From Tubulanus polymorphus (lineage: Eukaryota > Animalia > Nemertea), in assembly GCF_964204645.1 (NCBI RefSeq), contig NC_134033.1, forward strand, positions 6,952,655-7,016,654: DNA of 64,000 bases, read 5' to 3'. The position numbers and the translations under genes are program-made. Numbering within the stretch: position 1 is the first letter of the stretch; each line of letters starts with the position of its first letter. Shown here piece after piece: positions 1,021 through 61,954 of this stretch. The notes below the pieces were generated by a model. The model was not told where the DNA came from. It made no database searches and saw only the letters and a list, made by a program, of their open reading frames with translations.

Positions 1021-1469
1021 ATCATTCTAAAAGCTCACGTTTTTAGCGTTTAGTGGTTTGGAAGAACATTCATCACAAAGTCTATATTTCGAATAACAGA
1101 CCAGGTTCAGTTTCCTTCGTTTGACATTCGGAGGAATATTCCTCCCAAGGTCAATTTTCACAATAGCGGTCCTCTTAATTGGTGACACTCAAAGAACGCG
1201 CGGCTCAGATTTCTATTGTGCGCCTATCGCGCGCTGCGCGTGAATCACTTAGGTAATCTTTTCTGTAAATGTGAAGACCTCGGGGGCATTATGTTTTCTA
1301 AAGCCCAATGTTATCCCAAATTCCGGACTGTTAATAGGTTGATTTTACGGCAGAGTCGACATGTTTCAACAATTTTTAACTGTTCACTTATGAATAGTTG
1401 AGGACTTATGAACTAAAAATTAGTAAAATTTTTGATACATTTTGAGAAAGTCACAAAACATTTGAGACT

Positions 1470-1812
1470 GCGTTTATTTTCTTTTGTTAAACATAAATCT
1501 TTATAACGCATGAATAAATCATAATCATCTAATGAAAAAACTGTTTCTGGTCCAATCGTTATAGTTGATTTTTTAATCAAATATCTTCCAACATTATCGA
1601 CAACATAATTGTTATTATTACCAGTTACTTTTATATCAGCTGATAAATGAATACTATTTGGAACATAAAAAGTATTTTGTGTTAATCGAGGAATTCTAAC
1701 ATATAAAGTTTATATAAGAAGGATTATGAGTAATGATATGATGAGATCTTTCTGCTTTAATTGCATTAGATATTCTAGAATTCTTAGAAGGATTTATATA
1801 ATTCCCACTCAT
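1470..1812 (-). pseudogene. Probable major capsid protein (double jelly-roll), N-terminal fragment
   Basis: Hand translation: MSGNYINPSKNSRISNAIKAERSHHIITHNPS..(frameshift)..LYVRIPRLTQNTFYVPNSIHLSADIKVTGNNNNYVVDNVGRYLIKKSTITIGPETVFSLDDYDLFMRYKDLCLTKE. It matches my recollection of invertebrate Maverick capsid N-termini (NPS..L.VR.P....VP.....N.GR......DL). Confidence 0.6.
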
Positions 1813-1832
1813 TTATTAAGAAATAAAATTAC

Positions 1833-3258
1833 TTATTTATTTTTTATCATATTCACTAATCCAAAAGTAATAGCACTAACAACTGTAATTAAAAATAAAA
1901 TAATATGTTCAGCAGCAAAGTTAATAATGCTTCCTGCAGATTTCAATATAAAACCAACAATTAATGCTATTATTCCGGGTAATGCTGCAGGAGATTTTTT
2001 AGATAATTCCTTTAGATATTTTGCTAATTTTTTTAAACCATCTTTAACTTAATCTTGTATAGAATTATTGACTTGGTGGTTTAGGATTTGGTGTAGATTT
2101 TAATGAGTTTGAAATAGCTAAACCTATTGTTGTAAATAACATAGTTACAGCTGTTAGAATTGAAAGAATTGTGATACTTTCTAACTTAAATAATAACTTT
2201 ATTCTATCTTTTAATGATATATCAGAATTTGGTTTTATTAACAAATCTTTAAAAATAACTTTTAATCTATTAATATTATAATCATATGATTTTGATAATA
2301 ATTTCATTTCTTCTTTCTGAAATTCTATGTTATATTCTAAATCATCAATTTCTTTTTCTAAATATGCATTTCTTTTTTTAAATTCAATTTCTTCAATAAC
2401 TTCATTATATCTTTCTAATTTCAATTGTTCTATTTCTTTAATTTTATCAGTTTTTTCTTTTTTCAAAGTTCTAATTTTAAAATCTCTTTTACTTTTTTCA
2501 TGCGCAAATTTATCAGCTTCATTTCTTATACTAATAATTTCTCCAATTGCTTTATCAGAAAATATATTTAAATCTTTTAATTGTTGTTCTGTTGTATCTA
2601 TTAATCCATTCGGTAAAAGTTTTCAGTTTGAACTTCGGTTAATTTAAGTTCACTGGTTTTTGAATTAATAAATTCTTTAGGAATTGTTTCTGGTTCTAAA
2701 TTTTCATTAATTATCTTCAAAAAATCATCATTTCTTCGAATAAATTCTTTTCTATTTAGAGTTATCGCTTGTTCTGTAACATCAGTTATAACATCATTAT
2801 TGATTTTATTAATTCTAGATTGTTCAAGTTTAATTAAAGTTGGTTTTGTTATTATTTTATCAAGACTTTTATTAGAAGATATCTTAAAATAATAGTCATC
2901 TTTCAAATGCCAATTGTAATCACCATTTAAATATTTCAAATCTTTTACTAAATAATTCACACCTTTATTTATTAGTTATATTGAATCCAGATTTTTTAAT
3001 ATTGGTTTAAATTTTTCAGTTATTTCTTCATATTCTAATTCTTTTTTTTATCAAATCTGGATTTTCATTTTCACTGTCCAATCTTGAACGTGCTTTATTA
3101 ACATATTCATTAGTATCAGGTCTTGCTAAATTAGAATTATATGCTGTTTCATTATCGTTACAAAAACTTGTTTCACTAAAATCAGGTTGTGGTTCATCAG
3201 TTATACCGGGTTCATCAAAAGTATCCATTCCAATATCTTCTCCACCTTCTACTTCCAT
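1833..3258 (-). pseudogene. Maverick coiled-coil protein with C-terminal hydrophobic/amphipathic helices
   Basis: ORF pieces 3028-3258, 2601-2960 and 2065-2466, plus the tail KDGLKKLAKYLKELSKKSPAALPGIIALIVGFILKSAGSIINFAAEHIILFLITVVSAITFGLVNMIKNK* ending at 1833. Homologous to 26799-28090. Confidence 0.75.
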
Positions 3259-3274
3259 TTATACAATAAAAAAT

Positions 3275-3785
3275 TAAAATTTAAAGTATAATATTCCTCC
3301 TATTACAATTCCTAAGTTATAGCTAATTTAGTATTTTCATGTGATTTATTATCATTATTACTTTTAATTATTTCATGTTGATTAATATCAGTTTTTATAT
3401 TTTCTGTAGTATCATAATCAGGTTTAGAATCATTATTTAATTTAATATTCTTTGTTTTAGTTTCCGTTGATAGAATATGCTTTTTAATTTTTTCACCTTC
3501 CATTAGTTTTGGAGCAGTGATAATCTTTTTATTTATATCATTTAATCCAAACTTATTATTTATTGTAGCAGTTTTAATTAGATTATCGTAACCAATTATA
3601 TTTTCCATTTTTAATATTAGATCATCAGAAATAATTAATAAATTAGGACCTATTCAATAATTTAATCTAATATGTGATTTATGTAAATAATATTGATATT
3701 TTACTATATTTTCTGGAATCGATCTATTTTTATCATTATGAATAGAATCTTCAAATAATACCTGAATTGTTTTTGTGTATCAAAT
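3275..3785 (-). pseudogene. Conserved Maverick hypothetical protein, 3' part
   Basis: Reads QVLFEDSIHNDKNRSIPENIVKYQYYL..IGPNLLIISDDLILKMENIIGYDNLIK..TKLAIT..GGILYFKF. The same C-terminal tail precedes the membrane gene at about 26717-26780. Confidence 0.55.
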
Positions 3786-6700
3786 GCCTTTTCCTTTTAC
3801 CATTACTAACTAACTCAATATCATTTCTATTTCTAATATATTTACAAGTCTTACCATAGAATGCATTATTCATTAGTTTGAAGAAATCTTTCTCAAAATC
3901 AGTTTTAGCTTCAGTTCTCTGTTTGGTGTTAAAAATCTATATATTTTTCTAACCACTTAGATTGACTGAATGAAATATATCTATGTACTTTTTTTAGAAC
4001 CATTCCTTGTTTTAGATAAAACTTTAACATTCTATAATGTACTACATAATTATATCTATCTTCTTGAGTTACCATTAACTTTTCTGTATGAATATGATTT
4101 TCGGGTTTAATTCTTTTTTGATAATTTGATAATTCTTCATGAGTTACAGTTTTATGTTCTGGACAGTATGCTAGATTTCTAGATTTAAATTTAATATGTT
4201 CAGGATATTCCAAGTCTACAACAAAAAAGTAACCAGTATCTGTATCATCTGCAATATCTAGGATTCTTTTCTTCCAATCAAATTTATCATTATTTTCACG
4301 TTGTAAAACTTCAGTTAATTCAAATACTCCATAAGGTTGTGGTTCCATCATTGCCCAACCATACAAATTATTTGCATCTATATATAATAACTTATATCTA
4401 GGGTTATCATTTACATTGAAATATCTATCACCTAATACACCTGAAACTCCTCCTCTTATAGATTTTTCAAATAATATTAATTGATCTATATTTGTTAACA
4501 AATCCATTTTTATACATGTAAATTTTAATCCACAATCCCATGTTAAACCTGGACTTGAATAACAATGACATGGATCTATATTAAAATATTTTAGGTTTAC
4601 ATCTCTAAACCTTTCGAATATATCGGTTAATAATAATACATCTGATTTTAAATATAAATCTACTAATTGCCCATGATTTTTCATTCCAAAATGATTCCAA
4701 ATATTCAATGTTCTATTATATACTTCATCTTTAACATATTCTTATCTTAATTCATCATAGAATTGTTCTTTTAATAATTCAGTTATATTAAAATCATTAT
4801 GTGATTTATAAAATGAATATGGAATTGCGCCTTTATATCTCATTAATTGAAAATCATCATTATTTGGGTAGTGTTGCTTTAATATTTTTAATTCATCATC
4901 AACTAATGATTTTGATAAGTTATCTAATGAACTATTTAAAAATCTATATGAATCTATAAATCTTAGGCAACCAAATTGGAATGATACATAATTCTCAGAT
5001 GTTTTAGCTAACATTCTAAATTTATAAGTTGGTATTTTATCTTTTGATCTATTTGAATCTAATCTTTCTATTTCATTATTGATTTCTTCTATTTTATGGC
5101 ATAACTGTTTGATGAATAAATGTGCACCATATCCTGATAGATTATGAAATATAACTGGTACAAAGTTAATTTTCTTAGCTTGTGAGTTACAATTCTCATG
5201 TGCAGCGCCTCTAAACTTTCCATTCAAATGATCATGGTCTCTTACTTTTTTATCTCTAAAATTAAATATCTTTTCACAATAATAACATTTATCTGCAAAC
5301 TCAAATGCTTCGTTATCTTCTTCTGTCATTATAATTTCTATATTTGTATTCAATAATTTACTAAATCTTATTTCATATTCAATAAATAAGTCACAAAAAT
5401 GATTGATAACATTTTCATTTCTATAATCATAATATTCACTTTCAATTAGTTCTGGATAATCAGATTTAATATATAACCCGAAAGCAGCAGCTGATTGATG
5501 AAATTTTTTAATTGTATTTGTTTTTGGTGGTTCATCTGAAAAATCATTTTCATTAGAATTTAATTTCTTTCTTTTATAATATATTTCTTTTCTATCTTTA
5601 TCAGTTAATTCTTTATTTAATGATTCAAAATCTCCATATATAACAAATGGAACTTTATTTTTGTAATCATATTTTTTGAATTCTAATATTTTATCCTTTT
5701 CATTTGGTAAAACTAATTCACAATAATCATGATTTTCACATAATTGTTTATGATTTAATAATGCACCTTCAGTTCTGAATTTATGTAAACATTTTCTACA
5801 TAGATATATTTTATTATCAAAATCATTTTCTGATTTAAAAAATAAATCAATTCTTTTAATCCACATGTAATGATTCTCATAATATAATATATCTATAACA
5901 TCGTTTGAATCATAATCTTTTGATAGATATAAAGGTTCTAATGTATAATGTTTTATATTGTTACCTTTTGTATTTGGTAATTTTATTAAATCAAATACAT
6001 TTATCTTTATATTATTATCTCTTTCTATTTTTGGGATGTTTTTAATTATAACAGGATACTTATCTATCTTATAATTATTTTCAAATGGTTTATAATGAGT
6101 TAATCTAAAACTATGTGTAATATCTTCTGTTGGATGTAAGCAACTTATAATTGTAACTTATAATTGTCCATAGAAAACATTTATCATCTTCATTTTGTAC
6201 ATTTATTACAACATTAGTTTTAAATGGTAGTTTAATATAACTCGATGCTTCAATATCTGGTTCTTTATAATATGATACATTATTTTCATCAATTGGTTTT
6301 GATTTATTTAACTTATTATATTTTGTGTTATACACATGTAAAGTCATAAATATTATTTCATCGAATATTAAACCTGATCCTTCAAAATATTTATCTTCTA
6401 TTTTAGTTTTTACTTCATTATAACATTTATCTTATTTATCATCTATATGTTGTTTATATATAATATGTTGTGAATGAGAATTTATTTTATATATTGGTTT
6501 ATCTTCAGATTTTATAAACTTTACTTTAACTGATATACTAATTTTAGGGTATTCAACATCTATTATTATTTTTATTATTTCTTTCATATTTTCTAAATGT
6601 TTTTTATTTTCTTCTAATGTTTTTCCTTTATGAAACTCGATAGCTGCTGGGCTTTCCTTTATGAAACTCGATAGCTGCTGCTATCACTTTCAAATGCTTC

Positions 6701-7419: not shown

Positions 7420-7589
7420 AGTAATAGGGGTTTAGTTGTTCTAGGTTAAAGGTTGAATGGTTGTTATCTTAATTCTACTTGAATTAGTCGCGCACACTCC
7501 TAATTCAAGTAGAAATTATTATTATTTCACATTTGGAAAATTTCTCGACCGTTCGACCTTTGATCTAGAACAACTAAACCCCTATTACT
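7420..7589. repeat. 170-bp nested inverted repeat with AGTAAT...ATTACT ends (Maverick terminus or mini-element)
   Basis: 7420-7461 is the imperfect reverse complement of 7548-7589. Inner hairpin ttctacttgaattag / ctaattcaagtagaa. No TSD (tttaag vs aacgat). Confidence 0.8.
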
Positions 7590-9014
7590 AACGATAACAT
7601 GACCTTCAAGTGAATATGAAGTTGACTCAATTTCTAAAGAAAGCAACGTATCTTCTCGTGAGTTTCTTACATCGTTGTCACCGGGTGAGATATACGCTGC
7701 GCATATGAATAAGTCTTTATCTAATTTAAACTTGCGGTGATCGAGTTTAATCCATATAAAATCACGGTTTGTTGCTGGGATAATATTAATGCCGCATGCT
7801 TGCTCAGTCCAATACAATATAAGGATGCCTCCAGAATTTCTTTTCGCTCGAGGGGCTTTTTTTCTTGTATGGTGTATATGCTTAAACTCTGACGGTATCG
7901 GTAATACGCTATTGCGATTACCCCAAGTTTCCGTTAATATAATAATGTCATTATTTTTAACGATTTTATCCACAATCGGTAGTTCTAGTTTGCATATACG
8001 TGTTTTATTTGAGCGTATATGAAGCCCATTTATATTCAAATGGGTTATTCGTAGTTTTTTACTGACGCGACTAGTTTCCTAATGAGCACCGGAGGTGCCT
8101 GTGCGCGGGTTAAGATTAATGGTCGTCTCCTTAACATTGGTCGTATCCTTATCAGTCGTCTCGATTATCTGTGTGTCACTGCTATTCGATAAGTTCTTTT
8201 CTGGATTAGTATATTTATTTCCGTCGCCATCGTATGGTTTGCCATCGATAAATAGTCAACCTTCCCAGTTAAAGAAGGCTTTGTGACCGTTCTTAATTGC
8301 TTGCCGTTTTATTGGTATTTTCTCTCGAATCTTTGAGGCCGTTTCCGGGCAATAGTCTTCACTTATTGATATGGTCGAGTTCTTAAGTTTATATGCGTTT
8401 CGTCGCACACGCTCTCTATCGGGGATATGCGTGAATCTAGCAATTATTCCACGCGGGCCGAGTTTGCCTGTTTTGCGATTAATTCTATGTACACGCTCGA
8501 ATTTAATTTCATCCGGTTTTTCTACCTCCAAAGTTTCTTTAAATTGTTTTACGGATTGTTTCCTCACAATTTTCTCGCTAGTCAGTGTTATGCTCCGGAA
8601 CCCCGTAGAAAATAAAATTATCACGTCTGTCATAATTTTCTAGCTTGTTAAGTCTTTCAAATCTTTTTTTAGATTGGTCGTGGATGTCCGAGATTATCTG
8701 TTTTGATTGAAGCATGTTTCTCCTTATCTCATCATTCTCTAAGCGAGTGTTCGTGATAGTGTTTTTTGTTGCTGTGAGGTCGCTCTCTACACGGGTTACA
8801 CGAGTCGTTAGTTCGTTCAGTGAAGCTGATATGTTTGTTCTCTATCCAGACATTCTACTTTACGGTCTACGCTAGGGAGAATATTCACTTTATCAAGCAC
8901 ATCTTTAAGCATAGATTCCAATTTGCCACATCCTTCACACACCGATATTGCTGGTTGAGCCCGGGAAATACGACCGGATTCGATATCTAGGTATTCTAGA
9001 GTTTTCCGGTTCAT
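7590..9014 (-). mobile_element. Non-LTR retrotransposon 5' fragment (ORF1 and APE endonuclease)
   Basis: ORF1-type segment ERVHRI..PRGIIARF..KLKNSTISISEDY (8256-8633). APE domain NINGL..DIIILTETW..RNSGGILI..IWIKL..AYISP (7590-8039), cut at the AGTAAT terminus. Confidence 0.88.
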
Positions 9015-9495
9015 GGTGCTGTGTGTACAGAAACTAAAAGTGGTTGGGTTAGGTCTACGCTTAGTTTAGCGGGGATGGAGACGTCGATTTTTAAGGCGCA
9101 TTCAACGAGATCAGCATTCACGAGTGCAATGTATAAAAGTGGAGTGCCAGTGGATGACATATTTAAGAAAGTAGGTTGGAGGAATGCTGGAACTTTTGGA
9201 AAGTTTAATAATAAAGATCTTGTGTCAACAGATTAAGGGGAAAAATATATAAATTTGTAATATCTTTGAATTTGAAAATAATGAAGTGGTTTACATTATT
9301 TCTTTTAGTTGGGCTTTGAATACTATCATGCTTTAAGGTCTCATGTTATCCGAAGTGACCTAGTTTGACGATTCGATAGAATTATTAAATTAAACGAGAC
9401 TTACCTGTAAGTCGAAGTTTGATTGAGATTCTATCGAATCGTCATTCGGGAACGGAGAGATAACTTACAGGTAAGTCTTGTTTAATTTAATAATT
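9015..9495 (+). mobile_element. DIRS-like retrotransposon 3' remnant (tyrosine recombinase C-terminus and terminal complementary repeats)
   Basis: ORF 9021-9236 has AGMETSIFKAHSTRSA..GW..AGTFGKF(Y>N)NK. Nested inverted repeats 9366-9382/9428-9444 and 9380-9412/9463-9495 resemble the DIRS ICR/ITR. Confidence 0.82.
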
Positions 9496-9762
9496 AAACT
9501 TTGATCTTCAGTAACATCTACAAACTCTAATTTCGTTCTAACTCTATAAATCTTTTTATTTGTTTTATGTCTAATAATATTTTTTAATTTTTTCCATCCA
9601 TTTCTTGTCCAAACATCCATTAATCCATTTATTTGGATTAACTCTTTTTTTACCATATAAAATTTAAGATTTATTTTGTTTTGGAATTATTTCTGAAATA
9701 ATTCTTCTTATTAATATTTGATTATTATATTTTAGTAATATTGGAGGATCAGCTGTTGAAGA
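9496..9762 (-). other. Intein (Hint domain) N-terminal part inserted in the PolB YxD|TDS motif; degenerate and truncated
   Basis: After EILYLD the frame reads SSTADPPILLK (block A-like SVTxDTPIL), then one stop and a +1 slip in an A-run, then VWTRNGWKKLKNIIRHKTNKKIYRVRTKLEFVDVTEDQSLI (block B VTEDH>Q). The sister copy at about 32700 reads EILYFDTDSYIL. Confidence 0.88.
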
Positions 9763-12700
9763 ATCTAAATATAATATTTCAATATGTTTTTCCCCAAAAA
9801 GTGGTTCTAAAACATTATAATAAAAATCATACATTAATAATCTTGATACTTCTTAAACAGTTGAACCAATGAATATAGGTTTATTCAATTTCATTGACGT
9901 TCTTTTTAATTTTAATGCTGTTAAATAATCTTAAAATCTTTTATTCCCTTAGTGTCTAGGACTTGATTGTAAATGTCTCAATCGTTCAGAATTATTTACT
10001 TATTCAATATCATTTCTATTTCTAATATTTTCACATGTTTTTCCATAAAAACTATTATTCATTAATTTGAAGAAATCTTTTTCAAAATCTGTTTTAGATA
10101 TTGTTCTCTGTTGAGTATTAAAATCTATATATTTTTCTGACCACTTCGATTGATTAAATTCAATATAACGATGTACTTACTTTAATTTCATTCCTTGTTT
10201 TAGATAAAATTTCTACATTCTATAATGAACAATGTAATTGTATTTATTATTTTGAGTAAGTACTAATTTTTTTGTAAAAACATGCTCTTTCGGTTTTATT
10301 TTTTTCTGGTAATCACTGAAATAACTATCATCTACGGCTAAATGTTCTGGGCAATAAGGTAAGTTTCTTGTTTTAAACTTTATATTTTCAGGATGTTCTA
10401 AATCAACAACAAAGAAATAACCAATTGGTGCGTCATCTTTTAAACTCATAATTGCGCTTTCCCAATTAGTTTTATCATCATTTTCAACTTCTGTTAATAT
10501 AAAATTTTTATATGGTTGGAGTTGCATCATTGCCCATCCATTAGCGTCACCATATAATAATTAATATTCATCATTTGCTTTAAAATACCTATCTTCCATA
10601 ACACCTCTAATTCCACCTCTAATTGATTTTTTAAATAAGAAAACCATGTCTGGTTCTTTTAACATTTTTTATGACCTGCACTGACCAATGTTGCCAATTG
10701 GCTTCATCCCCAAATTTGGGAAATAATTATCCAAATTTGAAAAATTTCACATAATCATGATATTTGAACCTATATAAACTCCCAGTGAAAGTGGAATAAT
10801 TTTAGCAGCATATTTTCATCTGGTGACACAAAAAAGGTTAAAATGATTCCAAATATGTAATGTTCTGTTAAAAACTTCATCTTTCGCATACTCCTCATAC
10901 ACTCATAGCCTGATGAATAATGAAATAATATTGGTACGAAATTAACTTTTTTAGCTTGTAAATTACAATCTTCATGAGCAGCTCCACGATATTTTGAATT
11001 TAAATGATCATGATCTCTAAGTTATTTATCAAATGAATTAAAACGTTTTTCACAATAACAACAATGAGTTGCATAATTGAAATCAATTTCATCTTCTTTT
11101 GTCATAGCTATTCTTTTATTTTTGTTTAATAATTGTGCAAAATCACTTTCAATTCCATAAGCAGCAGCTCTTTGATGAACTTTTAAATTGTATTTATGAT
11201 TGGTGGGTCTTGAATTGTGTCTTCATTTAATTCATTTCCTTTGTCCATTGATTTCAAAAATTGCTTTTTGTTATATATTTCCTTTCCATCTCGATCAGTT
11301 AATTCTTTATTCAACGATTCAAAATCCCCATAAATTACAAATGGAACAATATTTTTTAAATTTATGATTAGTAAATTTCAACTTACAATCTTTTTTTGTT
11401 GGCATTATTAATTTGCAAAAATCTTTATTATCAAATAATTCTTTATGTTTAAGAAACGCATTTTCTGTTATTAATTTAGATGAACATTTTCTACATACAT
11501 AAATTTTATTATGATGATCACTTTCTGTTCTAAAGAATGAATCAATTTGTTTTAACCACATATAATGTTCATTTTCATCATTTTTATAATACAATAAATC
11601 TATAACATTTTCATCGTCATAATATTCTGTTAAATATGAAGCTTCTAATGTATAATCTTAAATATTTTCACCTTTTGTCTCTGGTAATTGCATTAATTCG
11701 AATACATTTATTTTTTTAAATTATTAACTTTTTCTATTTAGGAATCATCTTTATAGTTACTGGATATTGATCAATTTTATATAATGTTTCGTATTTCCGA
11801 TAATCAGTTATTCTATAAACATGTTCTTCTGTGGGGTGTAAGCAACTAATAATTGCCCACAGAAAACATTTGTTGTCTTCATTTTGAACATTTATAATTG
11901 CTTTTGATAAAAATGGTAACTTAATATAACTTGATGCTTTCATATCCTTTTCTGTTGTAAAGTTTGAATCATTCTTAAACATTTTATTACTTTTTGATGT
12001 TTTATTTCTTTTTGTGTTATAAACATTTAAACCTAAAAATATAATTTCACTCACTGTTAAACCAGAACCCTCAAAATAAATTTCTTCGATATGACGTTTA
12101 AATTCATTAAATATTTTTCTAATTTCTCTTTTATTTGTGTTTTTGAAATTATTTCATCAGAGTGTGTTTGAATATTATACCCCATTTTTACTTCTGATTT
12201 TACAAAACTTACTTTCCCAGAGATACTAATTTTTTGATATTCTACATCTGTTACCAAATCTAGTATTCTTTCCATGATTTCAATAAATTCACTATAATCT
12301 TCTATTGTTGCTCCTTTAAAAAATCTAAATATGCTGCAGGACCAATTTTACTATGGAATGTTTCTAAAATTTCAATTGTATCTTTTATTTCTAGTGAATC
12401 AATATAATTTCTAACATTTTCCATATAAGGTTTATCTAAAATAGATTTAGTTTTTGAAGCTGGTTTTTTACTTGTTGAGGTTTATCATCAAAATATTCTG
12501 TTCCTAAAATATTTGTATTTAAATTTTGTTTGTGTTTTTGTGATTCGAGATGTCTTTTATAATTCCTTTTTACTATAAATTCATTACAAACTCCACATTT
12601 TATGAAGGTGATGTGGTCCTCTAGCCTGAACCCCTGATATTTCAATTACTGCAGTACACACTTCGGTCGGTACAAGAGAAGTACTCATTAAGATATGTGA

Positions 12701-12800
12701 AGGATACAGGAGTTCTTTATGTTCTTTATGTTCTTTAGGCTTATCTATGTTATTATTACATATTAAGACAAGGAGTATTATGATAATAAAATACATTCAT
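9496..12800 (-). pseudogene. polB: Maverick PolB remnant B (divergent, intein-bearing subfamily)
   Basis: ZnF CGVC..H..H, NVQNEDNKCFLWA, DFES, DHDHLNSKYRGAAHEDCN, SIRGGI, KLMNNSFYGKTCEN, KPIFIG, MYDFYYNVL. Has internal deletions and a foreign insert at about 10670-10845. Confidence 0.9.
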
Positions 12801-13587
12801 TTTCTATATGGAAAATATAGTTTATTATTTTTTGTTCAAAAGTTCAGGGTCTGGACATTTTTAGTATTTGGTTTGGTAGGGCTAATCTATAAGGTTCACG
12901 TAAGCGTGGTTGTGAACCGTTTTGGAGGATAATTTGAGAGAGCCTATTTTATCAGTCTTTGTGTGCGTTATACTCACGAGCGTAGGTTGTACCATATTTA
13001 TGCATTCCGGTTTCAAAATTCAAGAAAGCCGCTTTATAAGCAGCGTTTGTGTTCACGTTATGTAATTAATTGCTTGCACGGCGGACATTCTATCATCATC
13101 CTATTTTTAGAGTAGTAGTCTCGTTTCGTGAAGCGTAAAGCACATGTATTTTCAAACTCTTCCGTTGATGATTATAATAAAGTTGGATTGTGAGTCTCAG
13201 TAGATAGTACAGTAACGAAATTAGGTCATTTTCTGGGAATGAGGCGTTTTCCGATTCGGTGTTTTTCATTAGGCGTTTTCCGAGTACCGCGGACTGAGCA
13301 TACTAGCTTGGAATTTTGGGAATGTTGGGAAATGAAAGTCTGAGGTTTTGGCTTAGAAAGTGAGATACTGAGCTAGAATATGGTTGAGAAAGGAAAGAGT
13401 TTAGGGACCAGGAACAATAAAGCGAGATCACGAAAGATAGAAACTTTCGTGTGTCAGATGTAGTGTGGAAGATTGGATGAATCCAGAAGAAGTGGTCCAA
13501 ATACAGAAACAGCTAGATATCCTATCACAAGCTGGATGGAATGGAATTTTCATTCCAAAACAAAATCATCAGATCGTTTTAACTCAC

Positions 13588-13738
13588 CTATCGAACAGAA
13601 GAATATACACCCAAGGAAATCCCGTATCGGTTCAATCTGGTGTTCGATTTGTTTTGTGATTGCACTTCCCTGGGCGCTAATGACTACACCAGCCAGAAAA
13701 CAACCGAGTTCCATAGATATTCCTAACCAATCAGTCAA
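13588..13738 (-). CDS. TMCO3: TMCO3-like cation/H+ antiporter, coding exon (151 bp)
   Basis: AG at 13740-13739 and GT at 13587-13586. Encodes [51 protein letters not shown], matching vertebrate TMCO3 [23 protein letters not shown]. Phase 0 start fits the upstream exon. Confidence 0.93.
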
Positions 13739-14648
13739 CTAAATGAGAAAAGTAATGGACAAGCTAGACGGTTTCAAAGATTACACTAAACGCTCGACCT
13801 TATATCAATTTTAATACAAAATGCACCGATGGATGATCACGGTACCCGATCACGAGAACTGTCATGAGAATCCAGTACTACATTAAATACTTTATATTTA
13901 GTACTTGCATTATGTCATATCGCGGAACGACGGAATCGCGGAATTTTCTAATGCTTGAAATAACAGATATATTCCAATCAATATGTGTTAGGATATATAC
14001 TTATTAAGTGTAAATTGTAAAAATAATTTATTGCTCGGGATGCGAGAAGCAATAGCGTCGTTTTTGTTAGCAAAAGGTTTCAACATTGATGATGTGGTAT
14101 TTGAACCGTGACTGCGCAGCATACACTTTATGCGACTAATATCTATTTCATCTCGACTTGCAAGCGCATCAGAGTCCTAGCTCAGTCAGTTCTACATAGA
14201 ACCTGATAAAAGACTTATCATTTTGACTAGAAAGGACTGGCAGTTGACCCAATACATCGTTTTCAATCAATTTTACAATATGCAGAAGGATTGCACAAAG
14301 TCTAGGTTGAAAGGGGTTGAATCCAAGGAAGTGACTCCGTGATTTAAAAGTTTAACAGTATGTGTCCATGCCTCATACCAAACTTCAGTTGGTAGACATG
14401 AAGAAATATTGTTACATTTTCAGATAACGGAGTCTCTTTTCTCTCATGAGCAACTTTCAATGCACAATTATTTCGCAATTTTTGCACTCCTTCATTACAG
14501 TGAATAATGCATCGATAAACGATACCAGAGGTCGAGAGGTCGAGCTCACTCTCCCTCTCAACCTCTGATATGAAACAATATATAATATTACTGAACTAAA
14601 CTAAACTGAATTAAAGATGAGTCATCACATTGTGCATGTTATAATGTG

Positions 14649-16140
14649 AGTAATTAAAAAATGGCATTTTCAGATCAGAGGTCGACCCATCCCCACTCAT
14701 CACAACTTTTATATCTTTTTTTCCTTATAAATGGGAGAGAGAAAAGTATTCTTAGTGTCAATTAATAACAAAATAAAACCAGCAAAAAACAACATGAAAT
14801 ACAAAAATTAGCCGATGTTACAAAAGAAATGGAGCATAGAATATATAAATTACATGGTGAAAAAATATACGCAAATTTGAGTTATTGTAATGTTAGTATA
14901 ACACGAGAATTTAAAGTATTTTTACCTGATAAATGGGTTTCATTAAATAAAGTTGAATTAAAAGATTTAGAAGGTTACAAAATAATTTATCAAGAAAAAA
15001 ATGAAGATAGTCATCATGATTTAGAAATTGTTGAATAAATATTTAAAAAAAAACAAAACATAAAAAAGTAAAAATAACAAAAACAATAAGATAATTAAAA
15101 TTTATTTTTTACTTTTAAAATAAAAATCAAGAATCCGAAATGACTTATCTGGACAATTGAATTGCTCCGCATAGATAGGCAAAAGTAGTGAGATATTTAA
15201 TTAGTTATAAATAGAAATATCATAAAATAAGATTATTTTTTTGCTTTTTTTCTAGAATATTAATCTATTTTCTTTATAGTGAATTTTTGCATTTCTGTAG
15301 CTTTTTCATTTTTAACAGGAGTAATTTCAGAGTTATCAACAACATAAATTTTATTCGATTTTCATACCAATTATAACCAATAAAAATGAGTACAATTACA
15401 AATCAAGTTGAATAATATAGATATTTATTAAACAATTTAGAAGGAGTAGAAAAAAGATTATTTTCATCTTTATTAACATTTTCATTATCTATTTTTTCTT
15501 TTATAGCTTTTCGAAATTCTTTTGATTTAATTCCTAATTGCAAAGACCATTCAATTTGTTTCTGAGTTCTCGTTTTTTTCTTCACAGTTAATACTTTCAC
15601 TTCTTCCACTTCGCTCATTTATTATAGAAAATTTTCTATTATCATTGTTTGAAAATGTTCTAACTCCAGTTGATAATAATAAATCATAAATCATAAATCG
15701 GCCTAATTGAAATGATACATATCAGATCCATTTATTTAATTCAGTCATAACTAAACAATAATTGAAATCAAATCGGACTATAATTAATTTTCATCTACAA
15801 TTGGTAGCATGTTATTACATAATTTAGAATAACCTTTTACTACATTTTCTGATATCGCGTCATCAATTCTAGCTATTCTTGCAGTTTCATCAATTCTAAA
15901 AATAATTTAATAATTTTACCTGATTTCATTATATCTAATTCATTATAAGTTAAATTTTACCAATAAAATGTTTACATTTCCCAGATGCAATTAATATTTC
16001 TGATTGATGTTTGCAATGAAGATAATATTCAAAATTATTAGTTGTTGTAATATCGCTTAGAGCACCATTATCTGGAGTTAATTTTGTTTCTGTTATTCCT
16101 AAATCATCCAAAGTTTTTCAATTGGAACATCACTATTTTT
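14649..16140. mobile_element. Maverick remnant C: terminus, small gene (+), conserved motif, convergent TM gene and 'RIND' gene (-)
   Basis: AGTAATT terminus at 14649. Collinear (inverted) with 42388-43849. Truncated by a Helentron-type insertion near 16140. Confidence 0.8.
14731..15038 (+). pseudogene. Small terminal Maverick protein (possible OB-fold/ssDNA-binding type)
   Basis: MGERKVFLVSINNKIKPAKNN..(frameshift)..LADVTKEMEHRIYKL..REFKVFLPDKW..LEGYKIIY. Homologues at 43402-43763 (-), 42013 (start only) and about 62800. The OB-fold call is inference from the KVFLP..IIY.G pattern. Confidence 0.6.
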
Positions 16141-16335
16141 AGTGTTTTCTGTTTCTTCACAGAAAATCCTATTGAGATTCGCGTGATTATTAGGGTTTCT
16201 GCTGCTTTCGCAGAATCCCTATTATAATTGTACTGATTATTAATAATAGTATAATTATTATTATCATTATTATTATTATTATTATGGTCTCTGCTGCTTT
16301 TGCAGAAATCCTATCGTAATAGCAGTGATTATTAT

Positions 16336-26798: not shown

Positions 26799-28090
26799 AT
26801 GGATGTAGAAGGTGGAGAAGCTTGTGAAATGGGAGAAATGGGAAATAATAATGAAGGATTTATACCTGATGAACCACAACCTGATTTTAATGAAACTAAT
26901 ATTGATAATGATAATGCATCATCATATAATTCTAATTTAGCAAGACCTGATACTAATGATTTCGTTATCAATGCACGTTCAAAAATAAATACTGAAAATG
27001 AAGTACCAGAAATAACAGGAAAAGAATATGAATATGATGAATTAATTGAAAAATTTAAATCAATATTTAGAAAATCTGGAATTGATTTTAATGATGAAGG
27101 CGCCAACCTTTTAGCGCAAGATCTAAAACATTTAGATGGTGAATTTTATTATCGTTTGAAAAATGATTATTATATTAAGATTACTTATAGAAAAAGAGAA
27201 TCAACTTTGCTTAGGGCAGAACCATCTAGAACTAAAAGAATAAGTAAAAGCAATGAAATAGAAAATGTTACACAAGAAGAAAGAAATGAAAATATTGTAG
27301 TATTCAAATATAGTATTTTTAAATTATTTGAAACACTTACTAAATATTCAGAACTAAACCCAAACCCAGAAACAACCCCTGAACAGAACATAACTTCCAA
27401 AACTAGTAAACTTAAATCAAATAAAGTTCCAATTGAAAATCTTTCACCAAATGGATTACTTGACGCAACAGATCAAGAATTAGAAGATTTAAATATATTT
27501 TCTGATAAAGCAATTAGAGAAATTATTAGTATAAGACTTGCATCTGATAAAATTGCGCATGATAAAAGTATAAGAGAATTTAAAATTAGAACTTTAGAAA
27601 AAGATAGAACTGATACAATTAAAAAAATAGAACAATTAATATTAGATAGAGATAATAAAGTTATTAAAAATTAAAAAATGAAAAAAAGAATGCATATTTA
27701 GAAAAAGAAAAAGATGATTTAGAATATAACATAGAATTACAGAAAGAAGATATTAAATTATTATTAAAATCATATGACTATAATATTAATAGATTAAAAG
27801 TTATTTTTAAAGATTTGTTGATAAAACCAAATTCTGAAATATCATTCAAAGATAGAATAAAATTATTATTCAAGTTAGAAGGTAAAAGAATTCTTTCAAT
27901 TCTAACAGCTGTAACTATGTTATTTACAACAATTGGTTTAGCTATTTCAAATTTATTAAGATCTACGCCTACACCCAATAAACCGGATAAACGTTCAAAT
28001 AATAATAATTCTATACAAGATAAAGTTAAGGATGGTTTGAAAAAATGAGCAAAATATATATGGGAACTATCTAAAAATCTGCTGCATTCA
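26799..28090 (+). pseudogene. Maverick coiled-coil/membrane protein (paralogue of 1833-3258)
   Basis: MDVEGGE..PDEPQPDF..YNSNLARPDTN..(frameshift)..KLLFKLEG..ILSILTAVTMLFTTIGLAISN..KDGLKK; 3'-truncated. Confidence 0.8.
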
Positions 28091-29117
28091 TTAAATTTAT
28101 CATCATACCCTTTATATTTCAAGAATACTTTTTCCTTTAAGAGTTTTTGTTTTCAATTTTGTATTCTATATCATCTGGATTTGGTACAAGTGGTGATTCT
28201 TGTTCATAAAAATAACCTAATATTTCTTCATCTTTTAAATCTTCTAATTTATAAACAAAAGGTTTTGTTAATATCATTTTTTTAATCTTAAAAATTTCTT
28301 CAGTAAAATTTGGAGTATAACCTTTATAAAATGTTTTTCTACATTTAGATATTCTTACATGTTGTCCTATTTTATATTTAGGTTCTCCGAAATTATGTGC
28401 AACAAACGCACCATAGAAATTATTCCAAACTAGTTCTGAATCATCTTCTTTTCTAGCTTGTATAGGTTTCATACCGATACTTGAATGTTTAGAATTGTTA
28501 TAACCTTTCACTAAATCATCTAATACATCGATATATTTATATGTTTCATTAGCAGTAAAATATTTCCCCTTTCTAGTTTTCAATGTTTTATTAAATCTTT
28601 CTATAATAGATGCTTTTTATCTGAGTGTGTTGAAAAATATACTACATCGTTATCAGATAATAATTTTTTAAAATGTTTAATATAGAATTCTTTACATTCA
28701 ACAAATTGTATCTTACCTGGAATAGCTTCTTTAAATATTAACTTAAACGCATTAAGAACTTCTATACCTGTTTTATTTTTGATTGGTATAATCCATGCGT
28801 ATCAGCTGAATATATCTATAACATTCAATATCCAGAAATCTCCTTTGTTGTGTTCTTCTAAGTTGTTCATGTTAATTAAATCTGCTTGCCATTGTTGATC
28901 AATATATGAAACCATAACTTTTCTTTTTAAATGATTTTTATCCATTTTCTTATGGAATTGATATGTAGGTTGGTTTTGTAACCATAATCTTACTTCACTA
29001 TATTTTATATTTTCTTAATCAGATTTAATTTTATCCCATAATTCTGAAACGCTAGAATATGATACTTCACTCTCTGGGTTATAATATAAATCTCTTAGAT
29101 ATTGTTCTTTTTTTCAT
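28088..29117 (-). pseudogene. Retroviral-type (rve) integrase with start of C-terminal chromodomain
   Basis: YYNP..QWQADL..VIDIFS.YAW..KEFY..KASIIERFNKTLK..YNNSKHSSIGMKP..KGYTPNFTEEIF..GYFYEQE..KYKGYDDKFNE, typical of Maverick integrase. Contains stops and frameshifts. Confidence 0.93.
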
Positions 29118-29118
29118 C

Positions 29119-30079: not shown

Positions 30080-30417
30080 TTATTTTCGCGAAAAAAGCGA
30101 AAAAAATATTATAAAATGGTACTAGTAACTCTTTAGTTAATACTAGCTTAGTTAAGTTTAAGAATTTCTATTCGAAGTTAAAGAATTTTTTTTCAAATCT
30201 TGTCAAAATCTATTTAATCTCTTTTTGAAAAGAAATAATAGATTTTGAATAAAAATATAATAGAAATAATGGCTAGTTAAAGATATGTAATTTTTAATAT
30301 ATTTTATTTGAATTAGGATTTAATACCCCACTACTTTTGTCTATCTATAGGAGCAGTTACAATAACTGTCCAGATAAGTCATTTCGGATCCTCGATAACA
30401 AATCCACAAAATATTCT

Positions 30418-32172: not shown

Positions 32173-35100
32173 TTAACATGTTAGAATCCTGTTCATAATC
32201 TCCTTCTCTTTTGACTCTTCTCTTTTAAATCTTAAGTATTCATCTAAATTACAACCATAAGCGACTGTGTGTGTACCATCATCCAGAATATATCTTTTAT
32301 CATCAAATGGGTTCAAACTTATCTTCTCTATCTCTTCAATAAACATTTCACGATCTTCTGATCTTAGACATTTCATCTTATGTTTTCTAACATCTTCATT
32401 GAATATACAATTGATGTTATCTTTGAAATGAATATTCTTTTCTACTACACTTTTGGTAATTCCTTTCAATTTCTTTGATTCATGAGTTTTAGTTTTATAA
32501 CTATACATTTTAGATCTAATACCTATAAATTCAATCATTTCTTCACCTCCTAATTCATCCTCAAATTTACCAGGAACTTTTTTATTTTCAGTATTATATA
32601 ATTCATGATCTTTAGGATAATTACTAAAATCAAAATGATGTTTTAATGTTTTTAAATCATCTGTTATGTTATTAGTTTTTATCTTTAATATGTAACTGTC
32701 AGTATCAAAATATAAGATTTCTATATGCTTTTCTCCAAAATGAGGTTGTAATACGTTATCGTAAAATTCATACATAATAATTTTGATATTTCTAAAACTG
32801 TTGCTCCAACATAAATTGGTTTATTAAATTTCATAGAAGTTCTTCTCATTTTAACTGCAGCTAAATTTTCATCAAATATTCTGTTACCAATAATATTAGG
32901 ATATGTTTGTAAATGCCTAATTCTTTTACCATTGCTAACTAACTCAATATCATTTTATTTCTTATATTTTCACAAGTCTTACCATAGAATGCATTATTCA
33001 TTAACTTGAAGAAATCTTTTTCGAAATTCGTTTTAGCTTTAGTTCTCTGTTTGGTGTTAAAATCTATATATTTTTCTAACCATTTAGATTGACTAAATGA
33101 AATATATCTATGTACTTTTTTAAGAATCATTCCTTGATTCAAATAGAATTTTAAAATTCTATAATGTACTACATGATTATATTTATCTTCCTGAGTTACC
33201 ATTAACTTTTCTGTATGAATATGATTTTCAGGTTTAATTCTTTTTTGATAATTTGATAATTCTTCATGTGTTGCAGTTTTATGTTCGGGACAGTATGCTA
33301 GATTTCTAGATTTAAATTTTTTATCTTCAGGATATTCCAAGTCTACAACAAAGAAGTAACCAGTCTCTGAATCATCTGCAATATCTAGAATTATTTTCTT
33401 CCAATCAAATTTATCAACATTTTCGTGCTGTAAAATTTTAGTTATTTCAAATACGCAATAAGGTTGAGGTTCCATCATTGCCCAACCATATAGATTATTT
33501 GCATCTATATATAATAACTTATATCCAGGGTTATCATTTACACTGAAATATATATCACCTAATACACCTGAAACTCCTCCTCTTATAGATTTTTCAAATA
33601 ATAATAAATAATCTATATTTGTTAACAAATCCATTTTTATATCCGTAAATTTAATCCACAATCCCAAGTTTAAACCTTGACTAGAATAACAATGGCATGG
33701 ATCAATATTGAAATATTTTAGATTTACATCTCTAAACCTTTCAAATATATCAGTCAATAATAATACATCTGATTTTAGATATATTTCTACCAATTGTCCA
33801 TGATTTTTCATTCCAAAATGATTCCAAATATTCAGTGTTCTATTATAGACTTCATCTTTAACATATTCATTTTTAAATTCATCATAGAATTGTTCTTTTA
33901 ATAATTCAGTTATATTGAAATCGTTATGCGATTTATAAAATGAATATGGAATTGCTCCCATATATCTCATTAATTGAAAATCATCATTATTTGGATAGTG
34001 TTGCTTTAATATTTTAAATTCATCATCAACTAATGATTTTGATAAATTATCTAATGAACTGCTTAAAAATCTATATGAATCTATAAATCTTAGACACCAA
34101 AATTGGAAAGATATATAATTCTCAGATGTTTTAGCTAACATCTTAAATTTATGAGTTGGAATTTTATCTTTTGATCTATTTGAATTTAATCTTTCTATTT
34201 CATTATTGATTTCTTCTATTTCATGACATAACTGTTTGATGAATAAATGAGCATCATACCCTGATAAATTATGAAATATAACTGCAACAAAATTGATTTT
34301 CTTAGCTTGTAAGTTACAATTCTCATGCGCTGCGCCTCTAAACTTTCCATTCAAATGATCATGGACTCTAACTTTTTTATCTTTATAATTAAAAAGTTTT
34401 TCGCAATAATAACATTTATCAGCAAACTCAAATTCTTCTTTATCTTCTTCTGTCATAATTATTTCTTTATTTTCATTTAACTTTTCATTAAATTTTATTT
34501 CATACTCAATTAATAAGTCACAAAAATGATTGATAACATTTTCATTTCTATAATTATAATATTCACTTTCAATTAGTTTTGGATAATCAGATTTTATATA
34601 TAATCCAAAAGCTGCAGCACTTTGATGAATCTTTTTAATAGTATTTGTTATTAGAGGATCTGAATAATCAATTATATCATTTTCAGAATTTAATTTCTCT
34701 CCTTTATAATATATTTCCTTTCTATCTTGGTCAGTTAATTCTTTATTTAATGATTCAAAATCTCCATATATTACAAATGGTACTTTATTCTTGTAATCAT
34801 ATTTTTGAATTCTAATATTTTATCCTTTTCATTTGGTAAAATCATTTTACAATAATCATGATTATCGCATAATTGTTTATGATTTAATAATGCACTTTCA
34901 GTTCTGAATTTAGTTTTCATTTTCTACAAAGATATATTTTACTATCAAAATCATTTTCTGATTTAAAAAATAAATCGATTTGTTTAATCCACATATAATG
35001 ATTCTCCTAATATAATATATCTATAACATCATTTGAATCATACACTTTTGATAAATACAAAGGTTCTAATGTAAAATGTTAAATATTATTACCTTTTGTT

Positions 35101-35609
35101 TTTGGTAATTTGACTAAATCGAATACATTTATCTTTATATTATTATCTTTTTCTATTTTTGGAATTTGTTTAATTTTAACGGGAAAATTATCTATTTTAT
35201 AATAATTTTCAAATGGTTTTATAATGTGTTAATCTAGAACTATGTTTTTTTATAATCTTCAACTGGATGTAAACAACTTATAATTGTCCATAGAAAACAT
35301 TTATCATCTTCATTTTGTAAATTTATAACAGCATTAGTTTGAAATGGTAGTTTAATATAACTTGATCCATCAATATTATCATCTTTATGATATGTCATAA
35401 ATATTATTTCATCAAATGTTAAAACCGATTCTTCAAAATATTTCTCTTCTATTTTACTTTTTATTTCATTATAACATTTATTTAATTTATCATCTATATC
35501 CTGTTTAGATATGATATGTTTTGAATGGGAATTTATATCATATATTGGTTTATCTTCAGATTTTAAAAATTTAAGTTTAGAAGATATACTAATTTTAGGG
35601 TATTCAACA
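32173..35609 (-). pseudogene. polB: Protein-primed PolB, copy D (intein-free)
   Basis: All Exo and Pol motifs, including YIDANNLYGWAM, KLMNNAFYGKT, ILYFDTDSY, KKVPGKF.DE, RSKMYSY, KLKGI and FDDKRYIL. Several frameshifts; 5' end lost at 35609. Confidence 0.95.
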
Positions 35610-38371
35610 TTCCTTTCAATTCGGTTGGTTTTCTATAGTGGCTGTTTCGAAGAGTCTACTATTGAAAAGTGACCATTTTGAAACATCTGGTTTCGATAGT
35701 GCACACTGCAGTAGAGGTGACTGTAAAACCACCCGCCTGTTAACAGTGACTTTGTAACTCCTACCATAGCAGCTACTCTCAAAACACATCGTTTCTGATA
35801 GTCAGCTATTGAAAAGTGACCATTTTGAGATCGCTTGCCAGATTCCCTGTTATAAATACACTGTAGCAACATATGCTTCAGGTTTGCAGTGATACGTGAC
35901 AATATAAACATACGGAAAACTCTACTCACGCTATAGTTTGGGGTATAGTTCTATTTAGAGTGACTCAGTTAAGATCTGAAGATATTGTAGATACTCTTTG
36001 AATGTGAAATGTAATGAGCGATTCCCAACTCTAACCAATAAAAGTCGAGATTGGAGTTAAATTTGTTTACAAATTGTCAATAGTTTTGTAATTTTAAGAT
36101 AAATCAAAATTTCCTTCTTTTCATTGCGATATAATTGAATAAAGAATTCAACTTGAACAAATGCAGCTATTTTCAAGCATAGGTCTGCATTTATTTTTGA
36201 TTTAAATTCTTAGATTAAAAGCGTAATCATAGATTGAGGCTAACCTCTCATTATTGAAATGGTGGTTTATTTTCAACGGGGGCCTTTGCATCTTAAATTA
36301 AGATGTGCATTTCGGAGTGTTCGAATTTCCCTGAATTCTAATTTCGCGAAATCATTGATTTTTTAAAAACAAAATATGCTATATCCATGTGGATTTTTAA
36401 CATTCTAAAGAAATCATCTAAATTATGCCCATATTTGATCGAATTTAATAGAAGAAACTTTTTATGGTATTCAAGATTTCATTTGGATTACGGTAACGGC
36501 CTTTGGTGATCGTCCCTGGGGTAATGAATGAAGAAATCCCGTAATAGATTTTTAAATAAGATAAAATTTGTTAAAGGTGAAACCGCAACGTTTCGACTGT
36601 TGACTAACAGCCATCATCAGGTGGAATGGAGACATTCCTAGTGATAAGGGCTTTTAGTCAGATGGCTGTCAGTCAACAGCCGAAACATTGTGGTTTAATT
36701 ATAATAAATTTCATGATACAAAATTCTATTGTGGAATTTCTTCATTTATCTACAGTTAACACGCTTTAGAGTATTTTCGACTTCTTTGGGTCCTGTAGTC
36801 CTTTAGATCAGAAAGTATTTACTAATCGGCAAAGAAGGCATATACAACCGTGTTGGTCGCAATGAGAGGGATTCCCTGTATATCTGCACCTTGAACCGGT
36901 ACCTTTGTTGATTCTAGCCCGCATTCACTTCCAAATTCAAGTATTGGTAACGTTGGTTTACGATAATTTGAGAAAAAGAGTTTAGTTGGAGAAAACTGAT
37001 AATTATCTTATAATTCAGCGATTCATTGGTTCATCGATTCAGTGAAGTTCAAACACCGTACATTTTGGCATGTTATTATATTGGCACCTTGAAATAAAGT
37101 TTCATATAGATATTGCGGTGCTAAGTTTATTAATATTAAGAGGTAATTACTTTTGGTTCGGGGTATATTGGTGGCCAAAGCAGTTTGTTCACTCGTTCAT
37201 CAATCACTGTCTAGTTAGCCAGTGTAATTGACCTGCTGACAGATAGCTGCTGCTGGGTTTTTGATAACGTATATAAACAATTTACTTTTAACAAAGTAGG
37301 AAAGTATGTGAAACTAGAATTAGAGCCTATTGCATTTCTGTCACATCTTAAGCCAAAAGAAGTTTTCTCTATCAAATGAAATTGCTGACTTCAAAATTAC
37401 ACGAACATCTCAACACTGCACTTTTATACGCTAATCGTTTGATCTTTTATAATAAGTTGGTAATTTCATTTCAACCAAACTGTATAACTACGAAATAAGA
37501 TTTTGATTATGGTATCACTTCTAGCGAGCGATAAAACGATTCAATGTTCATTAACGAAGAAGCAGAGAACAGCGTGACAAAGTGAACATCACATGGATTA
37601 CTTAATAATCGTTTGTATCGAAATAAACAATAAATTCAAGGTTAATTCTAAGTATTTTAGATACATTTTTTTCGTAATTCATTTTTTGAAAATATGATTT
37701 TATTTGTATATTCCTCTCTCATATACCCTTAAAAACAAATTAAGCCTAAAAGACAAATTTATTTTTTGTCTTTCTTTTCTACAAAATCAAAGATTTATGA
37801 ACGCACCAGAATGTTTTATAATCGCAAATGTAAAACAAAAATCTTAAAATTCTAAGAATTCTAGGACTGGCACTATATTTTAGTATTAATGGATTTAACC
37901 CATGATGATGTTACATGAATCAATAGTTTTCCATTTTGTTGAGCGTAATATGATTTAGGGGATTCTTAGCATCTCAAAAACTTTGATTTTCTATTCACAG
38001 AACTGTATTCAAAGCATACAGAGTTCTGTATACAAAGCATATAGGGTTTAACAGTACCTTTGAACCTGTCACGTATCACTGCAAATCTTTAACAGATGCT
38101 GCTATTTTGAACAGGAAATAACCATGCCTTCTCAAAATGGTCACTTTTCAATAGTTGACTTTTAGAAACGATGTGTTTTGAGAGTAGCTGCTATGGTAGG
38201 AGTTACTATCATAAAGTCACTGTTAACAGGCGGGTGGTTTTACAGTCACCTCTACTGCAGTGTGCACTATCGAAACCAGATGTTTCAAAATGGTCACTTT
38301 TCAATAGTAGACTCTTCGAAACAGCCACTATAGAAAACCAACCGAATTGAAAGGAATACTATTTCAGAGTG
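35609..38371. repeat. Pair of inverted ~300-370-bp repeat copies about 2 kb apart (MITE pair or foldback)
   Basis: 35609-35751 is the exact reverse complement of 38213-38357. Degenerate similarity extends to about 35900/38067. Confidence 0.85.
36525..36750. mobile_element. Penelope-like pLTR remnant (inverted pair) containing a hammerhead ribozyme
   Basis: Minus strand 36583-36624: CCAC-CTGATGA-T-GGCTGTT AGTC AACAGTC-GAAACGTT-GCGG. A partial plus-strand copy lies at 36661-36695. Same family as the insert at 56446-56607. Confidence 0.75.
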
Positions 38372-61773: not shown

Positions 61774-61954
61774 TTTTTTCGTCATCATTCATGGCAAGAA
61801 ATTTAACAATCAGTGGAGTGCTTGATAAGGATAAACAAGCCGCTAGAAAAGTACTTTCATTTGCTGTTGATTTGATACTAGTTCCTATAAGGAGACCAAA
61901 TCCTATCATCACTGCCATCATTGAAACACTACCGAAGACTGCAATTTTCCATAC
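61774..61954 (-). CDS. TMCO3: TMCO3-like coding exon (181 bp)
   Basis: AG/GTAAGC bounded, phase 0 to 1. Encodes VWKIAVFGSVSMMAVMIGFGLLIG..ESTFLAACLSLSSTPLIVKFL, matching TMCO3 VWKI..FGLL..CLSLSSTPL. Confidence 0.93.

Follow-up and report, generated by a model that had tools for sequence, protein, structure and literature searches.

The 64-kb stretch of DNA analysed here (hereafter the window, with positions counted from its first letter) contains fragmentary copies of Maverick elements, and in one of them, copy B, the gene of the protein-primed DNA polymerase of family B (pPolB) is interrupted in its catalytic motif by the front part of an intein. The polymerase part before the intein (N-extein) lies at 9763..12311 on the reverse strand, as delineated by tblastn with residues 126-1211 of the related protein P0002, and carries numerous stops and frameshifts. 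It reads ...MYDFYYNVLEPLFGEKHIEILYLD up to 9763 and ends with EKHIEILYLD, where the closing YLD (9771-9763) is the first half of motif C. Directly after the first Asp of this motif, the text changes on the same strand to SSTADPPILLKY. As the initial annotation had claimed, this switch from polymerase to intein falls at 9762, and the junction lies on an exact codon, with Ser1 of the intein encoded by 9762-9760. The N-terminal remnant of the intein, which occupies the pol-c site and has been recognised by reading frames and by profile match, covers ~90 codons (9762-9492, reverse strand) and consists of block A from Ser1, an RHKTNKKIYRV region, and block B at 9518-9495. It contains a stop codon at 9666-9664 and a frame change at ~9655-9645, past which the sequence continues as VWTRNGW...DVTEDQSLI and reaches 9492. 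The block B His has been lost, and nothing is left beyond block B.

We have compared the remnant with a profile whose sole basis is 32 PolB inteins of giant-virus type, with no Maverick row in it; here and below, giant-virus-type means that the extein is like Mimivirus PolB (PF00136), as the taxa were not checked one by one. The second remnant piece scores 67.8 bits (E 8.6e-20) with this profile, while the next open reading frame of the window reaches 4.6 bits and the shuffled controls no more than 7.3 bits (n=30, triplet-shuffled, 16.3 kb). The best matches of the remnant are other Maverick inteins, with 67-76% identity over 51 aa, compared with 62% over 42 aa for the Mimivirus intein, so the Mimivirus intein, which the initial annotation had called very close, is not the best match. 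Overall, we confirm that 9762-9492 is genuinely the beginning of an intein and that it lies in the active site of a Maverick pPolB. This copy of the intein is dead and cannot be active. The initial annotation had described one stop, one frameshift, a lost block B His and a cut by an adjoining DIRS-type element; all of them are present in the intein, but the description does not hold for the polymerase, where the stops upstream of the intein far outnumber the single stop within it. The remaining part of the intein has not been found elsewhere in the 64-kb window.

The window also holds its own control, as had been noticed before. The pPolB of copy D (32176..35683, reverse strand; PF03175 E 1.5e-13; PF02945) reads YFD-TDSYIL, with the empty insertion site between 32704|32703. 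A further pPolB, copy A (3802..6602, reverse strand), ends before motif C, and its insertion site is not scorable. The assignment to the protein-primed PolB of Mavericks is made by PF03175, which is found on copy D and on the proteins P0002 and P0010, and copy B aligns to both sets.

A query with the 54-aa remnant piece gave four proteins among 6 candidates, and the top two, P0001 and P0002, are pPolB inteins with 75% identity. In P0002, a pPolB of 1693 aa, an insert of 354 aa separates YGD from TDS. When this insert served as the query, 1610 matches were obtained among long proteins, and the 120 listed included 4 with pPolB exteins against 115 of giant-virus type; among shorter proteins there were 216 matches, of which 120 were listed, and 26 of the 114 new ones had pPolB exteins. 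Overall, the intein is joined to a pPolB in 64 of the 461 fetched proteins (cluster members included), and in 22 of them both junctions lie in one frame. These 22 full inteins are 333-354 aa long, and all have Ser1, the terminal Asn and Thr+1. That is, full copies ending in Asn and resuming with TDS, the search for which had been proposed, do exist among the relatives, and they hold a LAGLIDADG domain, with both motifs in 21 of the 22 by pattern. The block B His is kept in 20, and the position before the last is taken by His in 17 of them, by Lys in 4 and by Ser in one of the 22. Since many of the 22 are near copies, they should not be counted as 22 independent events. A block F Asp (VYD motif) is also present in the relatives. 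As Ser1, block B Thr and His, block F Asp, terminal Asn and Thr+1 make up the class 1 set, standard splicing is predicted for the intact members, following the scheme set out in part of PMC4031507.

The LAGLIDADG model PF14528 is above cut-off in P0002, P0010, P0012 and P0013, and the corresponding region is missing from the window copy. TIGR01445 is above cut-off in P0001 and P0013, just below it in P0002 and P0010, and absent from P0012, and PF14890 is below cut-off in every relative tested. The model of P0266 (pLDDT 89.4) matches solved structures of inteins with homing endonucleases, the best being 7qsu (E 3e-17), and shows an I-DmoI-like fold (rmsd ~2.7); the nearest viral models are giant-virus polymerases. 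P0343, an uninterrupted extein with its intein, is the closest relative of the window copy. One subgroup (P0012, P0013, P0271, P0272 and P0273) has ASD, SSD or YSD before TDS instead of YxD, whether the intein is present or not. In the wider family, P0151 and P0262 have inteins after EGD and DAD in proteins which by eye are type II topoisomerase-like, a second type of site ending in Asp.

Other searches have been less productive. No match was found for P0002 among viral contigs, for P0266 among genomes, or among phage records. A 27-base degenerate pattern gave 1 viral and 9 metagenome matches, and in a tblastn comparison none of these (0/10) aligns to the four polymerases used as queries; one is an archaeal RtcB-like intein. 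The pattern scan also brought up, in L003 (8364-4072, reverse strand), a by-eye RtcB-like protein with two inteins. A profile search of 50% representatives returned 3212 matches, with a pPolB extein in none of the 150 listed, which we explain by intein-bearing pPolBs probably being clustered under empty representatives.

Precise in-frame insertion with empty homologues is seen for copy D and also for a pair of proteins in one 90% cluster, P0383 with a 339-aa insert and P0386 without it. Between the two exteins, identity amounts to 99.5% over 574 aa and to 98.3% over 174 aa, with no difference at all in the region next to the insertion site (120 of 120 residues). Several clusters have 17 to 121 members, and the members listed are on separate contigs of ~7 to 825 kb; as judged from these listings, such clusters would fit a dispersed repeat of a eukaryote.

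Four sequencing runs (X1-X4), which come from one organism and one study with at most two samples, hold the window stretch in short contigs; no RNA run was listed among the holders. The junction between extein and intein is spanned by contigs in all four (X1 records 4 and 6, X2 record 12, X3 record 22, X4 record 31), while others stop at 9763 (X2 records 13 and 14, X3 record 23, X4 record 32), and loose ends occur there in X1 and X4. Bridging contigs together with ends at 9763 are what one would expect of a branching between occupied and empty alleles. In addition, loose ends at 9491 appear in all four runs, so other copies continue where the window copy is cut. In X3, the contig continuing past 9491 has a depth of 141 and the contig over the DIRS junction 5.4; the use of depth ratios as copy numbers was rejected, as the depth is reported as no measure of copy number. 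The deeper contigs differ from the window at the stop codon of the remnant, and some of them also at the frame change.

A first, quick intein tree had 108 rows and excluded those outside 320-430 aa or without both anchors. From it 32 giant-virus-type rows were picked by hand for a careful 53-row tree, in which the 21 pPolB rows form one side of a 0.46 branch (100/100), with the 32 giant-virus-type rows on the other. The window intein groups with P0343, P0282, P0274, P0002 and P0001 (99/98). The pPolB inteins fall into at least four subgroups, which match subgroups of the polymerases and are only ~43-46% identical to each other. As had been suggested, we have set intein and extein trees side by side: the extein tree (21 rows) recovers the same three subgroups as the intein tree, two at 100/100 and the one of the window at 83/76, though the tool warned of long branches meeting. 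The empty P0386 and copy D fall inside intein-occupied extein subgroups. P0010 was omitted from the extein tree because its extein is nearly unalignable to the other pPolBs (best E 1.4e-4); its intein, on the other hand, is 46% identical to that of P0002 and belongs to the clade. By PF03175 score and motifs, P0010 would be Alpha-like and the other pPolBs Beta-like, in the sense used in the relevant part of PMC8502044.

With 18 archaeal pol-c inteins as the outgroup, the pPolB clade is nested with 20 of the 23 giant-virus-type rows (100/98), and a giant-virus donor is therefore favoured by the tree topology, though not proven. An AU test rejected the grouping of P0010 with two Mimivirus-like rows (p 0.0002), but this grouping was chosen after viewing the tree and we do not rely on it. 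The whole intein of P0002 is ~40% identical to that of Mimivirus. Kinship to giant-virus PolB inteins at the pol-c site, which had been stated at the outset, is upheld. A separate, long-branched clade with subgroups that track the polymerases argues for an old jump and later diversification within Mavericks. Accordingly, of the earlier proposal that an intein moved between giant viruses and a polintovirus and was then endogenised, the kinship stands, but the picture of a lone intein passing from virus to chromosome has to be revised, since we are dealing with an old Maverick clade of at least four subgroups. The flanks of giant-virus-type inteins share on average 11.3 of 18 bases with the empty site of copy D (maximum 14; 77 loci), mostly in the Tyr, Asp, Thr and Asp codons. 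This likeness makes a jump plausible at the sequence level and is too small to call the targets identical.

The intein has been cut by the 3' end of another element at 9000..9495 (forward strand), which presumably is of DIRS type, as judged from its anatomy. It contains a tyrosine recombinase fragment (9000-9233, PF00589 E 3.2e-6) and terminal inverted repeats (9380-9412 with 9463-9495, and 9366-9382 with 9428-9444). Pieces of a LINE (7527-9065, reverse strand; ORF1-like and endonuclease, PF03372 E 0.05) adjoin this fragment, so that the intein sits at the edge of a nested stack. Maverick fragments are clustered at 1400-6700, 9763-16200, 26800-35700, 42400-43900, 59200-60100 and 63700-64000 and belong to at least two subfamilies; at the DNA level, copies A and D are 89% identical, and copy B is at ~70%. 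The clustering suggests an insertion hot spot. A broken retroviral-type integrase of the Maverick of copy D (28140..29014, reverse strand) was identified by motifs by eye, with a weak rve_3 match (E 0.082), and a fragment of a Maverick major capsid protein gene (1416..1709, reverse strand) has PF16903 below cut-off (E 0.0019). Both are weak scores, and both fragments belong to neighbouring Maverick copies, not demonstrably to copy B. No packaging ATPase or protease of Mavericks was found in the window by simple Walker A and protease patterns, and the copies are fragmentary. Short repeats with a strong AT skew form a long array at 47900-57800.

The host of these elements has left part of a spliced gene in the window. 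An exon of a cation/proton antiporter at 61774..61954 (reverse strand) matches PF00999 positions 72-130, and a later exon, likely of the same gene, at 13588..13738 (reverse strand) matches positions 224-272 (E 2.4e-9); both have AG and GT ends. As two exons on the same strand match successive parts of PF00999, the Maverick fragments are interspersed with the exons of a spliced gene of the host, and copy B is likely located in the next intron, downstream of the exon at 13588..13738. The KefC-like exons are separated by ~48 kb, in which there is debris of Mavericks, LINEs and satellites. They resemble animal TMCO3, a tentative name. With the host exon as the query, Atlas returned mostly bacterial antiporter clusters, which do not place the host, and no match was found in PDB. 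The Atlas clusters nearest copy D consist of proteins with PF03175 and endonuclease VII, are 95-96% eukaryotic and have Arthropoda as the commonest group. From the spliced exons and these taxa, the host of the window is very likely an animal.

Based on the above analyses, we consider it quite probable that the window preserves the dead front end of an intein lineage residing in the catalytic motif of Maverick pPolBs, the intact members of which are predicted to splice and likely to home between copies. Because the Thr-Asp-Ser of motif C is separated from the first Asp by the insert, an active polymerase results only if the insert is removed exactly. The class 1 route would proceed through an ester at Ser1, transfer to Thr+1 and cyclisation of the Asn, and only such splicing would restore motif C; selection on the element might therefore keep splicing functional. 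Homing would begin with the LAGLIDADG domain cutting the empty site of a second Maverick copy that shares the nucleus, whether this copy is integrated or replicating; repair with the occupied one as the template would then write the intein into it. In this way the many Maverick copies per genome could substitute for the allele pair that homing requires. There may have been a single, ancient entry of the lineage, for which a giant-virus PolB in a co-infected cell is the most likely source and to which the shared YxD-TDS codons perhaps contributed; later, the lineage would have been inherited with losses and with at least one crossing between two deep types of pPolB. Inheritance with loss would explain the matching subgroups, and one jump would explain P0010. 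The window copy would have decayed after integration and then been cut by the DIRS insertion. As for the fuller claim of mobile and working inteins in animal genomes, i.e., that the Maverick lineage splices in animal cells, homes among copies, and has come from giant viruses into both types of pPolB, the balance appears even to us.

Several other explanations should be weighed against this homing lineage. It might be that the inteins are real and splice but have lost homing, with one ancient entry, vertical descent, and empty sites left by precise loss or by recombination with empty relatives. The agreement between intein and extein subgroups and the empty P0386 and copy D within occupied groups would suit such a history, which we nevertheless regard as unlikely: both LAGLIDADG motifs are kept in 21 of the 22 full inteins although the subgroups have diverged so far, no mini-intein turned up in searches which favour full ones, and the distant polymerase P0010 shares the clade. 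Less likely still is a lineage of protist or other non-animal Mavericks, with the window being non-animal or a rare stray. All intact relatives come from metagenome records and none bears an animal name, which is what this explanation would expect, but the window has exons with AG and GT ends and pieces of LINE and DIRS elements, the Atlas clusters nearest copy D point to eukaryotes and most often to Arthropoda, P0271 comes from a clam-associated bin, and contigs bearing the intein abound in the runs where the window stretch is found.

The idea that just this element received the intein, recently and in a single transfer, from a Mimivirus-like virus could draw on the common site and on the identity of the Mimivirus intein over the 42 best-kept residues. 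However, the tree refutes it, as the window piece lies with five pPolB inteins inside the 21-row pPolB clade behind its long branch, and even P0002 shares only ~40% with Mimivirus; unless a giant virus nests in the pPolB clade beside the window copy, we consider this transfer highly improbable. An assembly chimera or a chance likeness in AT-rich DNA is hardly credible. Although the region is a heap of broken repeats and Pfam is silent on the remnant, the profile score far exceeds those of the shuffles, the junction is codon-exact, and this reading is refuted by the contigs that bridge the junction in all four runs and by independent proteins with the same join. A hedgehog-type or bacterial intein-like Hint domain was also considered and rejected, because the insert splits the catalytic motif and the relatives keep Thr+1.

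Certain observations weigh against the homing lineage, and we collect them here. General models do not recognise the remnant: Pfam has no match on either piece, and NCBIfam TIGR01445 stays below cut-off (E 0.022), for which the remnant is too short. Of the Hint or intein model check proposed in the initial annotation, this part failed, while the intein profile as well as TIGR01445 and the fold of the relatives speak for an intein. The penultimate His is absent from 5 of the 22 full inteins and the block B His from 2. The intact relatives are metagenome records, and the sole named source, that of P0271, is a bacterial genome bin of a lucinid clam symbiont, where the Maverick-type polymerase is likely host DNA. 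Copies linked to pPolB were found by alignment searches in 0 of 80 IMG/VR loci and 0 of 24 GTDB loci. No intact copy from the host of the window has been seen, as the window holds only a remnant and the runs only short contigs. A single empty allele in a near-identical background, as in P0386, fits precise loss as well as homing. In addition, an arrangement with the giant-virus inteins as one clade beside the pPolB inteins costs only 3.4 log-likelihood units; the AU test does not reject it (p 0.43), so that the donor can be named only as a favoured one. Finally, splicing, homing and the donor are what we infer from sequence, next to the anatomy and the allele pairs, which are seen directly.

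The protein-primed PolB is a new class of host protein for inteins. Should the host be an animal, as seems to be the case, inteins would have reached animal chromosomes via an endogenous virus. If splicing and homing in animal nuclei are true, the bar to inteins in animals would be access to a conserved target with empty alleles and not biochemistry, and we would have a gene-conversion drive within one transposon family. The lineage may also serve to trace encounters of giant viruses with Mavericks in one cell, and it offers new inteins and LAGLIDADG enzymes from a eukaryotic setting.

In the parts considered of a 2018 survey (PMC5784728), eukaryotic inteins are listed in fungi, algae, protists and giant viruses, with zero for Metazoa in the supplement, and those of eukaryotic viruses occur only in giant-virus families and unclassified viruses. 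The main texts of PMC8502044, PMC8097293 and PMC11131425 make no mention of inteins, and nothing on inteins of pPolBs or animals was found by term in the searched parts of PMC12220804, PMC3671162, PMC13768754, PMC9939771 and 10.64898/2026.10.13.758929. Thus the earlier statement that no description is known for animal Mavericks agrees with the literature searched, in which neither a pPolB nor an animal genome was found to be reported with a Hint intein; Repbase and InBase were outside its scope, and an earlier note may exist. The nearest precedent is one sentence of PMC11161782, where endonuclease insertions in Polinton pPolBs are taken to suggest intein invasions with citation of work on HNH and Vsr domains, and the lineage described here gives substance to that guess. 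We take the cited work to be 10.1101/2023.08.22.554363, a nematode paper, where Polinton pPolBs with inserted nuclease domains of the HNH and Vsr kinds are described and the word intein is absent from the text considered. Similar inserts are present in our material, as the polymerases of the window have an endonuclease VII-like one and P0010 has by eye a Vsr-like one. The passages on HNH and Vsr mention no Hint domain, splice junctions or LAGLIDADG, whereas the Maverick relatives here have a complete intein in the active site.

Klebsormidium, Tetrabaena and a labyrinthulomycete have also been described as having inteins, here in DNA polymerases of endogenous viruses (PMC10710043, in the parts considered). 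These cases are alike in that the intein-bearing gene encodes a viral polymerase and is located on a nuclear scaffold, and differ in that the hosts are algae and a protist, not animals; the terms Polinton, Maverick and protein-primed occur neither in the searched text nor in two searched supplements of that paper. The archaeal PolB pol-c inteins (PI-PkoII, 2cw7; loci L094-L112) have the same site and architecture as the Maverick inteins, but their identity is 22-40% in the best segments, they form the outgroup of the tree, and their hosts are cellular. The closest known system is that of the pol-c inteins in the PolBs of Nucleocytoviricota, i.e., Mimivirus (P0093), phycodnaviruses and invertebrate iridoviruses (PMC5784728, in part), although two listed rows of the iridovirus inteins start with Cys, end unlike the Maverick ones and are outside our trees. 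Like the Maverick inteins, those of Nucleocytoviricota sit in motif C, are ~350 aa long, begin with Ser1, combine Hint with a double LAGLIDADG domain and end at Asn|TDS, with ~40% identity and the nearest predicted folds. The two differ in the host protein, which is the protein-primed PolB (PF03175) in Mavericks and the RNA-primed PF00136 polymerase in Nucleocytoviricota. In addition, the Maverick inteins form a separate clade, and the element that carries them integrates and is inherited in chromosomes in many copies.

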